Assembly (NCBI GenBank): GCA_016793095.1
Contig: JAEUJQ010000037.1
Span: 140,244-204,243 of the forward strand
From: Myxococcaceae bacterium
GTDB lineage: Bacteria > Myxococcota > Myxococcia > Myxococcales > Myxococcaceae
Direction of reading: 5' to 3'
Length of the DNA stretch: 64,000 bases
In this document: piece by piece, positions 40,683-63,578 of the stretch
How positions within the stretch are numbered: the first letter of the stretch is position 1
Layout of the letters: each line of letters opens with the position of its first letter
Translations under genes and position numbers: made by a program
The notes under the pieces: generated by a model
What the model was told of the DNA's origin: nothing
Database searches by the model: none
What the model saw: only the letters and a program-made list of their open reading frames with translations

Positions 40683-40802
40683 GGCGGACGTCTCGGTGCC
40701 AGCGGCAAGGTGAAGTCGACCGCGCAGCGACGCGCGGCCTCGGCGGACGTCCCGGCGCCAGCGGCAAGGTGAAGTCCACCGCGCAGCGACGCGCGGCCTC
40801 GG
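40683..40802. repeat. 60-bp tandem duplication (2 copies, 4 mismatches) in the 5' region upstream of the vWA lipoprotein gene.
   Basis: CGGCGGACGTC(T/C)CGG(T/C)GCCAGCGGCAAGGTGAAGTC(G/C)ACCGCGCAGCGACGCGCGGCCT occurs twice back to back. Confidence 0.85.
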
Positions 40803-40816
40803 CGGGCGCGGCGAGC

Positions 40817-41263
40817 TCAGCCGGGCAGCGGGAGCTTCAGGAACATGAGGGCGCGGGTGAGGCGCTCGAGGGCCGCCAGCGCAGCGGGCTCGAGGGCGTT
40901 GGCCTTCGCGAGCGCGCGGGCCTCACGCAACGCCCCGGCGTCATCGGTCAGCCCCATCGCGTCAGCGAGGGCGCGCCGGCGCGTGAGCACCTCGTCGATG
41001 AAGGCGCGCGCCTCCTCCTCGGTGATGCGCCCCGCCGCGAGCTCGGCGAGGACGAGGCAGTTGAACTCACGGCAGATCCGCGGACGGTCGTCGTAGATGG
41101 TGCAGCGAACGCCGTCGAGCGCGCGGCAGGGGAACTCCATGGTGTCGGCGTCCAGCACGCTGACGCGCTCTGCGAGGCGTGCGGCCTCGCCTGGCGCGAG
41201 GGGCGCCGTGGCGAACAGCGTCCCGTCACAGCACACGCCGCAAGACAGACAGAGCGCGCTCAT
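40817..41263 (-). CDS. YkgJ-family putative Fe-S/zinc-chelating protein (CxxCxxCC motif).
   Basis: MSALCLSCGVCCDGTLF... matches the CxxCxxCC signature of the UPF0153/YkgJ family. The start was chosen at an internal Met of ORF 40817..41425. Confidence 0.6.
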   Translation of the reverse strand: MSALCLSCGVCCDGTLFATAPLAPGEAARLAERVSVLDADTMEFPCRALDGVRCTIYDDRPRICREFNCLVLAELAAGRITEEEARAFIDEVLTRRRALADAMGLTDDAGALREARALAKANALEPAALAALERLTRALMFLKLPLPG

Positions 41264-41389
41264 CGAGTCACCACCTGCAGGGCCTGCCAGCGCCCTGGCG
41301 TGGTCCAGCATGCCCCGGCGCGGCGCAGAAGGCTGCCCTGAACCGGCGCACCGCGCGGCAGCAGCACGTGGAACCGCCCGGCTTCCCGA

Positions 41390-41405
41390 TGGCACCGGAC
41401 TCGCA
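41390..41405 (+). promoter_or_regulatory. Candidate sigma-54 (-24/-12) promoter TGGCACcggacTCGCA about 35 bp upstream of the MVP-like gene.
   Basis: TGGCAC is perfect, with GG/GC spacing as in the TGGCACG-N4-TTGCW consensus and one mismatch in the -12 element. The GGAGC Shine-Dalgarno lies about 10 nt before the ATG at 41440. Confidence 0.3.
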
Positions 41406-41439
41406 CACCCCCGCCTCGTCCCCAACCTGGAGCTCCGCC

Positions 41440-43593
41440 ATGGCCGACCGCGACGTCCGCGAACGCGACATCCTCATCGCCTCGAACGAGTACGCCTACG
41501 TGCAGGACCTGACCAAGGGCGACATCGTGCTCTACGTCGGGCCCACGAAGATCTCCCTGTCGAACACGGAGCGCCTCGTCGACTTCAAGAACGACCGCTT
41601 CCTGCCGGTGCGCGGTGAAGAGGGCGCCTCGGGCGTGTGCCCCTTCGTGGCCGCGTCGAGCACGCAGTACGTGGTGCTCGAGAACCCCGCGAAGGACCCG
41701 GCGACGAAGCCGGTGAAAGGCAGCAACTCGGCCATCGAGCTGCTCAGCGGGCGGCGCGTCGTGGTGCCCGGGCCGGCGTCGTTTCCGCTGTGGCCGGGAC
41801 AGAAGGCGCGCGTCGTCCCCGGCCACGAGCTGTACGAGGACCAGTACCTGCGCGTGCGCGTGTACGAGCGCATCGAGGGCGACCCGGCGCCCATCGGCAG
41901 CGAGCGCATCGTGAAGGGCAGCGAGGTGAGCTTCTACCTGCCGAAGACGGGGCTCGAGGTGCTGCCCGACGGCGGCGGCTCGTACGTGCGCAACGCGGTG
42001 TCGCTGCTCGACGGGCAGTACTGCGTGCTGCGCGGCCCACGGGGACAACGCCGCTTCGTTCGCGGGCCGGGCGTCGTCTTTCCCGAGGCGTGGGAGGAGT
42101 TCGTCACCGGGGCCGGCGGCGTGCGCGCGTTCCCGGCATACGCGATGCGGCGCGACAAGGGTCTGCACGTGCGCGTGGTGAAGGCGTTCGAAGCGAAGAC
42201 TGGCGACCAGGTGCCGGCGGGCACGTACCAGGCGGGCCAGGAGCTCTTCCTCTCGGGACGCGAGGGCTTCTTCTTCCCCACCGAGTCGCTCGAGGTGCTG
42301 GGCGAGGTGTCGTCGATTCCGCTCGCCGAGAAGGAAGCCATCTACGTGCGCGAGCTCGCGACCGGCCAGCTGCGCACCGTCGCCGGTCCCGCGGCCCACC
42401 TGCCCGACCCGACGAAGGTGCAGGTGGTGCAGCGGCCGCTCGACGCCGAGACCATCAAGCGCTGGGGCCTCAAGGGCTACGACGGCAAGCGCGCGCCGGC
42501 CATCACCATTCCGCCCAGCTACGCGGTGCTGGTGACGGGCAAGACACGGCGCGAGGTGGTGAAGGGCCCGCAGGTGCGCATCCTCGACTTCGAGGAGGAG
42601 CTCGGCGTGCTCGCGCTCTCGACCGGGACGCCCAAGACCGACGCGGCGCCGCTGCCGACCTGCTTCCTCCTGGTGGACGGCAACAAGGTGTCTGACCGCC
42701 TCGAGGTGCGCACGAGCGACCACGTGCAGCTCGAGGTGCGCCTGTCGTACCGCGTGAGCTTCGCGAGCTCACCGGGCGGGGACGACGCGCGCTGGTTCAA
42801 CGTGAGCAACTACGTCGCGTTGCTCTGCGACCACCTGGGCAGCATCGTGCGCGCGGCGGTGCGGTCGACGTCCATCGAGCGGTTCCACGCGGCGAGCACC
42901 GAGATCCTGCGCAGCGCCGTGCTGGGCGAGAAGAAGGGCGACAAGCGCACGGGGCGCGAGTTCGAAGAGAACGGCATGCTCGTGTACGACGTCGAGGTGC
43001 TCGAGGTGAACATCCTCGACGGCGACGTGGACGAGCTGCTCACCGACGCGCAGCGGGCGGCCATCAACTCCGAGGTGACGCGGCGGAAGGAGGAGCTGCG
43101 GCTGCTCACCGAGCAGGCGCGCCACGCGGTGGACCGGGCGGTGTTCGAGGCGCAGCGGCAGACGCAGGAAGCCGAGCTGGTGCTCGAGGCGGCGCGGCGA
43201 CAGCTCACCGCGGCGAAGGCCGAGGGCAAGGTGGAGGCGACGCGCATCGAGGCGCTCGGCAAGGCGAAGACCGACGCCGAGGCGCTCGAGCTGTCGAGCA
43301 AGGCGCAGGTCGAGGCGAAGGCGCGGCTGGCCGAGGTCGAGGCGCGGGCGCTCGAGGTGCAGGTGGCGGCGTTCAAGGCGCAGATGGAGTCGCTGCAGCC
43401 CGAGCTCATCGCGACGCTCAAGACGCTGGGGCACCAGCAGCTCGCCGCGACGCTCACGCAGCACCTGGGGCCGCTCGCCATCCTCGGCGGCGAGAGCGTG
43501 GCCGACGTCGCGAGCCGGTTGCTCTCGGCGCTCCCCGTCGGCGCGAGCGGGACCGACCTCGCCGCGGCGGCGCTCAAGCGGAAGAGCGCGTGA
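41440..43593 (+). CDS. Major vault protein (MVP) homolog: N-terminal vault repeats, shoulder (SPFH-like) domain, cap-helix coiled coil.
   Basis: Colinear matches to human MVP: [25 protein letters not shown] vs [41 protein letters not shown] vs [36 protein letters not shown] vs [37 protein letters not shown] vs FDDFHKNSARIIRTAVFG. Then a long Ala/Glu/Lys coiled coil. Confidence 0.85.
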   Translation: [717 protein letters not shown]

Positions 43594-43672
43594 AGCCATG
43601 AGAGGATGAGGCTGCCCCGGAGGGAGTCATGCCTCGAGACAGTCCAGCACGCCGCTGCTCTGGAGGCCGCCG

Positions 43673-44635
43673 GTGAGCAGGCCGGTGCGCCTCGTCCCGG
43701 GTGACGTCTTCGCACGCTTCGCGAGCCCGACGTGCCGCGGCTCGCTCTCGCGAGACGGCAACCGCTTCGTGGTGGGAGACGACTCGGGCCAGCTCACGAC
43801 ATGGGAGCGCGGCGCGAACGGCCGCTTCGCGCTGCGGGCGCGCATCGTGGTGCCTCCAGCGGGCGCGCACTCGAGGCCGGCCGTGCGCAACACGGCGTGC
43901 GCTCCGGCGGGCGACGTCATCGCGAGCGAGGAGTACGTCTGGGTCCGCCTGCGGCGCTTCGACGACCTGAGCGTCCTCTCCGAGCGGCTGTGCGGTGGGG
44001 CGCAGCGCGTGCTCGACCTCGGCGCGCCGGGCTTCCTCGTCGCGGGCAACTGGATGCTGAAGACGCCGGACCTGAAGGAGGGCGCGCTGCACTCCGGGGA
44101 GGTGTGCGGCGCGGCCGTGCTGCCCTGGAGCAACCAGGTCGTGACGACGGTGGAGCGGCCCTCCGAGGAGACGGCCATGGCGATGCGCACCTGGCAGGGG
44201 ACTGCACCCGTTCAGCTCGTCGACCTCGCCACCGGGAGGCCCGTGCGCACGCTGCTCGACGACACGGTGCTGGCGGCGCTCGCGGTCGATGAGGCCCGGC
44301 GGCGCGTTCTCTTCGCCACGTACGGCGACGCCCCCATCGCGGTGTACGACGAGTCCGGTGCGCAGCTTCCCTCGCTCGGGCAGCGCTCGGGCAGAACCGA
44401 GCTGCTCCTCGTGCGCGACGACTGGATCCTCAGCGTGCCGAACGCCGTCGGCAGAGAGGTCTCCGTCGACTGCTGGGACGCTGCGAGCCTCGAGCCGCTG
44501 GGCAAGGCGAGCTTGCAGCGTCAGTTCAGTCCGCCGTGGATCGCCGCGAGTGCCCGCACGCTCGTCATTCCCGACCTGCCGGCGGGCGAGCCCGGGGCGC
44601 GGTTCGCGGTGCGCGAGTGGTCCATCGACCGCTGA
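43673..44635 (+). CDS. Hypothetical protein with WD40/beta-propeller-like repeats, downstream of the MVP homolog.
   Basis: GTG start. FVVGDDSGQLTTWE is a WD-like strand. The composition is non-artefactual. No catalytic motif. Confidence 0.5.
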   Translation: MSRPVRLVPGDVFARFASPTCRGSLSRDGNRFVVGDDSGQLTTWERGANGRFALRARIVVPPAGAHSRPAVRNTACAPAGDVIASEEYVWVRLRRFDDLSVLSERLCGGAQRVLDLGAPGFLVAGNWMLKTPDLKEGALHSGEVCGAAVLPWSNQVVTTVERPSEETAMAMRTWQGTAPVQLVDLATGRPVRTLLDDTVLAALAVDEARRRVLFATYGDAPIAVYDESGAQLPSLGQRSGRTELLLVRDDWILSVPNAVGREVSVDCWDAASLEPLGKASLQRQFSPPWIAASARTLVIPDLPAGEPGARFAVREWSIDR

Positions 44636-44638
44636 GCG

Positions 44639-45418
44639 TCAGCGCCTCGACTTCGGCGGCAGCGGCACGAACGCGCTCGTTGACGCGACGTACTCGGCGT
44701 AGCCGGGCCGCGCGCCCATCGCCGACTCGAGCAGCGCCACGCCCGACACGCGCACCAGCAGGAACGTCATCAGCGCCGCGCTCGCCACCGTCGGCCAGGC
44801 GCCGCTCGCGACGCCGAAGCACGCGAGGCCCCACCAGGTGACGGCGTCGCCGAAGTAGTTCGGGTGGCGCGTGTACCGCCACAGCCCCTGGTCCATCACG
44901 CGGCCCTTGTTGGCCGGGTTCGCCTTGAAGCGCGCGAGCTGCAGGTCTCCGAGGGACTCGAACGCGACCCCGACCGTCACGAGCGCGGCGCCGACGGCAT
45001 CGAGCCACGTCAGCTCACCGCGCGCGCGAACGGCGAACTGCACCGGCAGCGAGATGAGCCACAGCAGGACACCCTGCAGCGCGAAGACGACGACGAGGCT
45101 CCGGAGCGGCCACGAGGTTCCCGCCCGCGCCCGCATCGCCGCGTAGCGCGGGTCTTCCCCGCGGCCGTGGTTGCGCCAGGTGAGGTACACGCTCAGCCGC
45201 AGGCCCCAGACGCTCACCAGCGCGGCCACCAGCCACCCGCGCGGCGACGGGCCGTTGAGCCAGAGCGACAGCCAGGCCACGAGCACGAAGCCGGTGCCCC
45301 AGAAGAGGTCGACGATGCTCGAGTCACGCAACCGCAGCGACACGAGCCACAGCACGCCCATGCACGTCGCGAGCAGCAGGGCGGTGGCGGCGAGGTCGTT
45401 CACGGCGGCGGGCAGCAT
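44639..45418 (-). CDS. DUF1295 / steroid-5-alpha-reductase / ICMT-like family integral membrane protein.
   Basis: Multi-TM. GLWRYTRHPNYFGD is the hallmark of this family. Confidence 0.8.
   Translation of the reverse strand: MLPAAVNDLAATALLLATCMGVLWLVSLRLRDSSIVDLFWGTGFVLVAWLSLWLNGPSPRGWLVAALVSVWGLRLSVYLTWRNHGRGEDPRYAAMRARAGTSWPLRSLVVVFALQGVLLWLISLPVQFAVRARGELTWLDAVGAALVTVGVAFESLGDLQLARFKANPANKGRVMDQGLWRYTRHPNYFGDAVTWWGLACFGVASGAWPTVASAALMTFLLVRVSGVALLESAMGARPGYAEYVASTSAFVPLPPKSRR

Positions 45419-59240: not shown

Positions 59241-63578
<4,338 letters not shown>

Follow-up and report, generated by a model that had tools for sequence, protein, structure and literature searches.

The locus and its genes

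The 64-kb stretch of DNA analysed here (the window) belongs to a metagenome-assembled genome (MAG) of an uncultured member of the Myxococcaceae, and carries the gene of a bacterial major vault protein (MVP) homolog, comprising vault-type repeats, a shoulder domain and a cap helix. The gene lies among locus tags JNJ54_15055 to JNJ54_15070, occupies positions 41440..43593 of the plus strand and encodes a protein of 717 amino acids (aa), listed by NCBI as a 'hypothetical protein' (MBL8920185.1). Its open reading frame (ORF) opens with an ATG at 41440, closes with a stop codon at 43591-43593 and agrees with MBL8920185.1 in length. A longer ORF of 804 codons, opening with a GTG at 41179, was also listed, but the gene proper begins at the ATG at 41440, where the protein has a conserved N-terminus at a start position common to nearly all close MVP homologs.

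Upstream, the minus strand encodes a 147-aa protein of the CxxCxxCC/YkgJ family (40817..41260; PF03692, scoring 33.6 bits where the cut-off is 23, E=6.4e-8). The divergent intergenic region of 179 bp between the two genes (41261..41439) presumably bears promoters; a promoter and terminator scan of positions 40700-44800 found no match to the sigma-70 consensus within it. Downstream, a spacer of 79 bp (43594..43672, plus strand), in which the same scan found no terminator-like hairpin, leads to an orphan gene for a 320-aa protein on the plus strand (43673..44635; MBL8920186.1), predicted to be all-beta and possibly a propeller. Its GTG start is preceded by GGAGG at a distance of 6 nt. G+C content is 70-74% throughout the window, and the G+C content at third codon positions (GC3) is 0.96 in the MVP gene, 0.925 in the 320-aa gene and 0.905 in the divergent gene, values such as real genes of this genome should have.

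A preliminary description of this DNA had placed the three genes at or near these positions, with the downstream gene about 80 bp from MVP and a YkgJ-like protein encoded divergently, and in all of this it holds. The start that it gave for the feature, 41264, lies just past the start codon of the divergent gene and not at the beginning of MVP.

The 717-aa protein is a homolog of MVP

Comparisons by Pfam, phmmer, hhalign, BLASTP and Foldseek agree in making the protein a bacterial homolog of MVP in which repeats, shoulder and cap helix are all present, as had been proposed from the sequence. The Pfam model MVP_shoulder (PF11978) matches aa 415-527 with a score of 105 bits, where the cut-off is 25 (E=3.2e-30), and a phmmer search of all PDB sequences returned MVP chains only (human, rat and rabbit; E~2e-32), aligned colinearly in one stretch that pairs residues 198-702 with MVP residues 293-853. 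For human MVP we used a sequence verified against PDB chain 11dr_A, with which it agreed in 892 of 893 residues, residue 882 being corrected before use. BLASTP aligned residues 153-707 with human residues 246-858 over 636 columns (E=5e-35) at 28% identity, and hhalign of a profile of 62 family members against human MVP gave a probability of 99.9 over 495 columns at 31% identity. The 'near-identical blocks' that the preliminary description saw in common with human MVP are an overstatement at 28% identity, the conserved motifs being short.

An AlphaFold2 model built on the 62-member alignment (mean predicted local distance difference test score, pLDDT, of 77) is all-beta from aa 1 to ~410 and alpha/beta over aa 413-527 (pLDDT 80-91), continues as an unbroken helix over aa 528-676 and ends in a short tail. 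On the plus strand of the window these parts correspond to an N-terminal beta-rich region with about seven vault-type repeats (aa 1-412; 41440..42675), an SPFH-like shoulder domain (aa 413-527; 42676..43020), a cap-helix domain consisting of a single helix of ~149 residues (aa 528-676, helical throughout by DSSP; 43021..43467) and a C-terminal, cap-ring-like tail that bears a conserved 13-residue motif (aa 677-717; 43468..43590), with cap helix and tail aligning to those of the human protein. Searched with Foldseek against the PDB, the model matched full-length MVP best (E 5e-35 to 1e-29, template modelling (TM) score ~0.55), followed by crystal structures of murine MVP R1-R7 (E 1e-13 to 5e-12, ~410 columns). 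SPFH proteins (flotillin, HflK/C, prohibitin and stomatin) matched at E values of 1e-6 to 1e-7, over the shoulder and helix only, and Pfam Band_7 (PF01145) has no match in the 717-aa protein. A likeness to SPFH/band-7 proteins alone, which the preliminary description had named as speaking against its proposal, is thus not what these searches returned.

The vault-repeat models of Pfam (PF17794/5/6 were tested) remain below their gathering thresholds in this copy, Vault_3 scoring 23.3 bits (threshold 28.8) and Vault_4 17.8 bits (threshold 22.9), and the repeats therefore rest on the fold match together with matches at the level of the family. MVP_shoulder matches 62/62 family members and Band_7 1/62; at E<=0.01, Vault_3 matches 62/62 (best match 1.6e-10) and Vault_4 45/62. 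The highest hydropathy of any 19-residue segment is 1.36, and neither a signal peptide nor a transmembrane (TM) segment was found in the MVP homolog, which is predicted to be cytoplasmic.

The order of repeats, SPFH-like shoulder, cap helix of ~150 residues and tail is that of eukaryotic MVP (human Q14764; rat; PDB 4V60, 9BW5, 9R86, 9Z4W), although the latter is 861-893 aa long and has nine repeats (R1-R9). The shoulder begins at ~aa 413, compared with ~520 in mammals, leaving ~108 fewer residues ahead of it than in human or rat MVP. We therefore put the repeat count at about seven and not nine, which suggests that the bacterial clade represents a shorter form of the protein.

Human MVP has a basic NAD+/ADP-ribose pocket, the 'keyhole loop', between adjacent shoulders, involving R504, K506, R507, H509, R511, D521 and F522 (PMC12280208). 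In the sequence alignment these residues fall opposite T397, K399, T400, A402, P404, N415 and K416, respectively, while human P508 falls opposite a nearly invariant D401, and K506 and the adjacent P505 are all that is retained. Judged from this alignment, the human pocket appears not to be conserved in the bacterial protein.

A Foldseek search of BFVD with the MVP model returned SPFH proteins and, beside them, an 802-aa 'prohibitin domain-containing protein' of Harvfovirus sp. (A0A3G5A4K1), aligned over 825 columns (E=2.6e-12, TM score ~0.3), which may be either an MVP-like protein or an extended SPFH protein.

A large and strongly conserved bacterial family

A word-indexed search of a database clustered at 90% identity found at least 474 relatives of the protein (E<=1e-5 among the scored candidates, a count that is a lower bound). 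The best 120 of these are 55-96% identical to it and mostly 672-765 aa long, which is also the length range of the window-type clade apart from one member of 832 aa. Relatives with names belong to the Myxococcota (Archangium, Myxococcaceae, Polyangiales), Planctomycetota and Acidobacteriota. When 1.84 billion representatives clustered at 50% identity were searched exhaustively with HMMER, 1147 proteins had E<=1e-3 and 539 had E<=1e-30; in this set the entire clade of the window collapses into one representative, and the rest are mostly proteins of 800-950 aa with an identity of 35-45%. The view of bacterial MVP homologs as rare, taken in the preliminary description, does not survive such counts.

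The family is under strong purifying selection. The 62 homologs have a mean column identity of 55%, with many invariant columns, and the ratio of nonsynonymous to synonymous substitution rates (dN/dS) between the window gene and close relatives is 0.10-0.17. Best conserved within the clade are aa 1-60 (window 41440-41619), with a mean column identity of 0.88 compared with 0.61-0.78 elsewhere, modelled at a pLDDT of 37-55. These N-terminal 60 residues may form an oligomer contact. By eye, their motif Y-x-x-V-x-D...VGP...ER[LV] recalls the way in which R1 of human MVP begins, and R8 as well.

Bacterial MVP homologs, myxobacterial ones included, were described in 2013 (Daly, PMC3762200) and treated again in 2019 (Sokolskyi, bioRxiv 10.1101/872010) and 2023 (Santos, bioRxiv 10.1101/2023.11.10.566534). 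The examples given in these works come from Corallococcus coralloides (H8MNI3), Melittangium boletus, Hyalangium (A0A085WQF1), Plesiocystis, Enhygromyxa, Saprospira and Microscilla, so that the gene described here is a further member of a known family and the existence of bacterial MVPs is not new. Compared through their published descriptions, these proteins likewise include homologs in gliding, predatory Myxococcota, and the clade of the window has no Pfam Band_7 match, as reported for the Hyalangium protein; unlike the examples described previously, the window copy comes from an uncultured Myxococcaceae MAG. Against human MVP, the window-type clade scores a median of 109 bits, compared with 58 for the longer metagenome representatives of 800-950 aa. 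It stands nearer to the eukaryotic protein than the MVPs of other chemotrophs do, in agreement with the placement of the Corallococcus and Melittangium MVPs as sister to a cluster of eukaryotes plus cyanobacteria in the 2023 preprint (bioRxiv 10.1101/2023.11.10.566534).

Our literature searches found no experimental study of any bacterial MVP, and the published work on these proteins is in silico only, in keeping with their earlier characterisation as functionally uncharacterised. An analysis of the gene neighbourhoods of bacterial MVPs seems not to have been made before; the words 'operon' and 'neighbor' are absent from the 2019 preprint (bioRxiv 10.1101/872010). The modest additions of the present analysis concern how large the family is in metagenomes, the form with about seven repeats and how relatively close this form comes to eukaryotic MVP, the absence of conserved neighbours and the non-conservation, at the level of alignment, of the NAD+ pocket.

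The downstream gene is not a conserved companion of MVP

The 320-aa ORF downstream of MVP is a real, faster-evolving and lineage-restricted orphan gene. Its product has three homologs, 68-76% identical and sharing many invariant Gly, Trp and Asp positions, and its dN/dS is 0.31-0.42, compared with 0.10-0.17 for MVP. The protein has no match in Pfam, NCBIfam, PADLOC or PHROG at usual thresholds, nor any Pfam family at E<=0.01. The sole Pfam match, Beta-prop_IFT140_1st, has E=0.37 in the protein of the window and 0.0029 at best among the four homologs, and a profile search of the PDB with the family gave only the TRIM2 NHL (E=0.22). An AlphaFold model from the four-sequence alignment, of low confidence (pLDDT 49.5), is all-beta with blade-like groups of four strands, and its 50 best Foldseek matches in the PDB are all beta-propellers (50/50), mostly of the WD40-repeat type, but with TM scores of only 0.24-0.41. 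A beta-propeller-like fold is thus plausible but unproven. The 'WD/beta-propeller-like' character ascribed to the protein earlier depends on this low-confidence model, and no Pfam WD40 model matches the protein.

The preliminary description had further asked whether this gene supplies a partner akin to TEP1 and thereby completes a minimal bacterial vault module. TEP1 combines TROVE, a TIR-like DUF4062, NACHT and many WD40 repeats (bioRxiv 10.64898/2026.05.01.722283), whereas the 320-aa protein is a single-domain protein that lacks the first three and has at most a generic beta-propeller-like fold in common with it. A specific likeness to TEP1 is not supported.

The distribution of the gene bears on the same question. 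Its family comprises four clusters among 5.8 billion proteins, and a profile search gave the same four. In 58 MVP loci drawn from a scan of species-representative genomes, all of them MAGs and all other than the genome of the window, tblastn found the 320-aa gene in none (0/58). Across these loci we found no conserved neighbour of MVP of any kind: de novo clustering of ORFs recovered as recurring elements only shadow frames of MVP itself and scattered Ser/Thr kinases at arbitrary positions, and among the 54 immediate downstream neighbours of MVP homologs, which carry 83 Pfam families, the 25 most frequent families include no beta-propeller.

Loci from relatives that hold an MVP or a 320-aa homolog (labelled L059-L067) show how variable this position is. 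In the closest relative (L059, L060), MVP is 96% identical to that of the window and the flanking gene order is the same on both sides, yet MVP and a convergent DUF1295 gene lie only 294 bp apart (L059:7146-7439, L060:3357-3650), compared with window positions 43594-44638. Of the 320-aa gene the interval keeps ~250 nt from the 5' end, disrupted by frameshifting indels and followed by a deletion of ~710 bp; the gene is here a pseudogene remnant. The relative whose MVP is 91% identical (L061/L062) has an unrelated ORF of 284 aa in its place, and those at 88-89% have an esterase gene directly after MVP. The order of the window is kept in L066/L067, where the C-terminus of MVP (93% identical) is followed after a 33-bp gap by a 320-aa homolog (71%) and by DUF1295 (93%). 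In L063/L064, a 734-aa ORF that is not MVP precedes a 320-aa homolog (76%) by 25 bp, with DUF1295 and the esterase following, and in L065 there is no MVP within the 394 bp upstream of the homolog, and no DUF1295. The neighbours of the gene are therefore MVP upstream in two of four contexts and DUF1295 downstream in three of four.

The segment 3' of MVP is thus a variable spot whose content differs between relatives at 96%, 91% and 88-89% identity, and the 320-aa protein does not qualify as a conserved part of the vault. Its failure to accompany MVP homologs (0/58 loci; four members against hundreds), which the preliminary description had named as the outcome that would refute a partnership, the remnant in the closest relative, the non-MVP gene upstream of it in L063/L064 and the missing TEP1 domains together speak against the proposed partnership.

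Two further observations concern these loci. In L066/L067 the 320-aa homolog (L066:185-1144, L067:554-1513) is 71% identical to that of the window while both flanks are 93% identical, and the gene is either under relaxed constraint or diversifying. The 734-aa ORF of L063 (L063:2-2206, plus strand) is partial, begins with a Gly/Ala-rich segment of AGGS/AGGA repeats and has a weak match to DUF1565 (E=0.0055); no counterpart was found in the window.

A probable self-assembling cage and its alternatives

Eukaryotic MVP forms the entire shell of the vault by itself, as a hollow barrel of two halves, 67 nm long and with 39-fold symmetry. Since the elements that build this shell (repeats, shoulder and a helix of ~150 residues) are present in the bacterial protein at comparable length, self-assembly is, by analogy, its most likely property. 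We consider it probable, at about three chances in four, that the gene encodes a soluble, stand-alone member of the MVP branch of bacteria, centred on the Myxococcota, which probably assembles into a cage with no dedicated partner, and that the 320-aa gene is no conserved vault component. The complete eukaryotic vault also has TEP1, PARP4 and vault RNA, none of which is encoded in the genes scanned around the MVP gene of the window.

On the model of the eukaryotic particle, repeats and shoulders would pack laterally and the long helices of ~149 residues would bundle into a cap, resulting in a hollow dome of high order or a barrel of two halves, assembled without a dedicated partner. In a two-halved vault the N-terminal 60 residues would make the waist contact, and their high conservation fits a specific contact of this sort. 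With about two repeats fewer, this barrel would not reach the 67 nm that the eukaryotic vault measures.

Several points weigh against this interpretation. The case for cage assembly is one of homology and architecture alone, about two repeats are missing from the 717-aa protein, and the putative waist contact, aa 1-60, is modelled at low confidence (pLDDT 37-55). Wherever the 320-aa gene is present it lies on the same strand as the gene upstream of it and 25-80 bp after it, and this upstream gene is MVP in two of the four known contexts (the window and L066/L067); the shared strand, the short gaps and the recurrence of MVP leave room for co-transcription and for a lineage-specific link within a small clade. 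Finally, the absence of components resembling TEP1, PARP4 or vault RNA is a statement about the 64 kb of the window.

The main rival to a closed cage is a scaffold of the SPFH type, in which the protein would form a single ring or dome capping a patch of membrane or some other surface in the manner of HflK/C, flotillin and prohibitin. The shoulder and long helix resemble the dome-building SPFH domain and coiled coil of the SPFH/Band-7 cage proteins (HflK/C, flotillin, prohibitin, stomatin), in line with the Foldseek matches at 1e-6 to 1e-7; the two missing repeats and the poorly modelled N-terminus would also suit such an arrangement, and eukaryotic vaults have been reported as membrane-associated in situ in a 2026 article (PMC13100048). 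Unlike these proteins, however, the MVP homolog has no membrane anchor and no Band_7 match (found in 1/62 family members), and a repeat array of 410 residues stands in place of their TM or hairpin region. Its best conserved part is the N-terminal 60 residues, as expected of a protein-protein contact such as a waist. Given the lack of a hydrophobic anchor, and with full-length MVP far ahead of the other structural matches, we regard an SPFH-like dome as unlikely, if still worth keeping in mind.

A narrower role for the 320-aa protein, as a cargo or regulator of the MVP particle recruited recently and confined to a small sub-clade of Myxococcaceae, is favoured by the position of its gene, which in two organisms, that of the window and that of L066/L067, lies beside MVP on one strand, and by the gene being real and under some purifying selection (dN/dS 0.31-0.42, GC3 0.925). 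Such an accessory is nevertheless quite improbable, given that the closest relative has lost or pseudogenised the gene and yet keeps an MVP that is 96% identical, and that DUF1295 (3/4 contexts) is a more constant neighbour of it than MVP (2/4).

Still less likely is the two-component particle of the preliminary description, a minimal bacterial vault module in which MVP is joined by a WD-like protein whose propeller takes the role of TEP1. The two genes do lie on one strand, 79 bp apart and with no terminator-like hairpin between them, their order with DUF1295 recurs in L066/L067, and the low-confidence model of the 320-aa protein matches only propellers, mostly of the WD40 type. These points are outweighed by a family of four members in 5.8e9 proteins beside at least 474 relatives of MVP, by the absence of the gene from all 58 loci and its decay to a remnant next to an MVP that is 96% identical, and by its contexts elsewhere, with a non-MVP gene upstream in L063/L064 and no MVP upstream in L065 (394 bp). 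TROVE, NACHT and TIR-like domains are missing from the protein itself, as is any Pfam WD40 match; its gene evolves faster than both flanks, and among 54 loci the genes that follow MVP show no recurring beta-propeller family. As a conserved system the module is largely refuted.

Eukaryotic contamination of the assembly, or a recent transfer from a eukaryote into the genome behind this MAG, might be suspected of a protein best known from eukaryotes, the more so as transfer from eukaryote to bacterium was considered earlier for some bacterial MVPs (PMC3762200), but both are refuted by a GC3 of 0.96 that is the same as in flanking genes, by conserved bacterial synteny in relatives (FGGY kinase, CxxCxxCC, esterase), by an identity to human MVP of just 28% and by hundreds of bacterial relatives across Myxococcota, Planctomycetota and Acidobacteriota, whereas an ancient transfer may have taken place in either direction.

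The function of vaults is unsettled some forty years after their discovery, and a bacterial MVP, should it need neither TEP1 nor PARP4 nor vault RNA for assembly, would offer a simple system in which to study the role and origin of the shell. This opportunity is not new, since bacterial MVPs were pointed out as early as 2012-2013, and the locus adds no further handle on it; the proposed module of MVP and a WD partner does not exist as a conserved system. More tentatively, and with the odds somewhat against so specific a proposal, the Myxococcota-centred clade of ~717-aa proteins with ~7 repeats could be the bacterial branch nearest to eukaryotic MVP after the reported cyanobacterial proteins, and could build vault-like cytoplasmic cages without partners. 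Were this true, vault assembly and function could be studied in a minimal model open to genetics, and the idea that myxobacteria contributed to the ancestor of eukaryotes would gain a data point.

Surrounding genes

There is no sign of a mobile element, a defence island or a vault accessory around the MVP gene. The wider window encodes a NiFe hydrogenase, a NuoF-like protein, Pta-AckA, a pyridoxal-phosphate (PLP) decarboxylase, an FGGY kinase, an EF-G paralog, ABC-2 permeases and a TopoIII-RecQ fusion, and the genes scanned include none for TROVE, PARP or NACHT proteins. Only relatives with an identity of 88% or more in MVP have the YkgJ-like gene beside it. An origin in a defence island or phage was considered and rejected, there being no meaningful PADLOC match (one to a coiled coil, E=0.009), no PHROG match and neighbours of housekeeping or metabolic type. 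A gene resembling vault RNA or Y RNA was likewise dismissed, as no Rfam family has a match in the 64-kb window.

Two genes from MVP, the minus strand encodes a lipoprotein-like protein of 644 aa (MBL8920183.1; 38460-40394) with an LVAC (MRTLALALAVPALVAC) lipobox, and therefore exported. It has sub-threshold matches to VIT (E=0.2, aa 36-101) and then VWA_2 (E=0.009, aa 232-334), an order of VIT and vWA that is also that of PARP4 and ITIH. As a PARP4-like partner of MVP this protein was rejected: the matches are weak, the protein is exported, it lies near MVP only in relatives with at least 91% identity, and it has no PDB sequence match. PARP4 itself contacts MVP through its MINT domain and not through VIT-vWA.

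The TopoIII-RecQ fusion, at 59241-63578 on the minus strand, joins both enzymes in a single polypeptide of 1445 aa, with Toprim and Topoisom_bac over aa 4-594 and DEAD, Helicase_C, RecQ_Zn_bind and HRDC over aa 794-1441.

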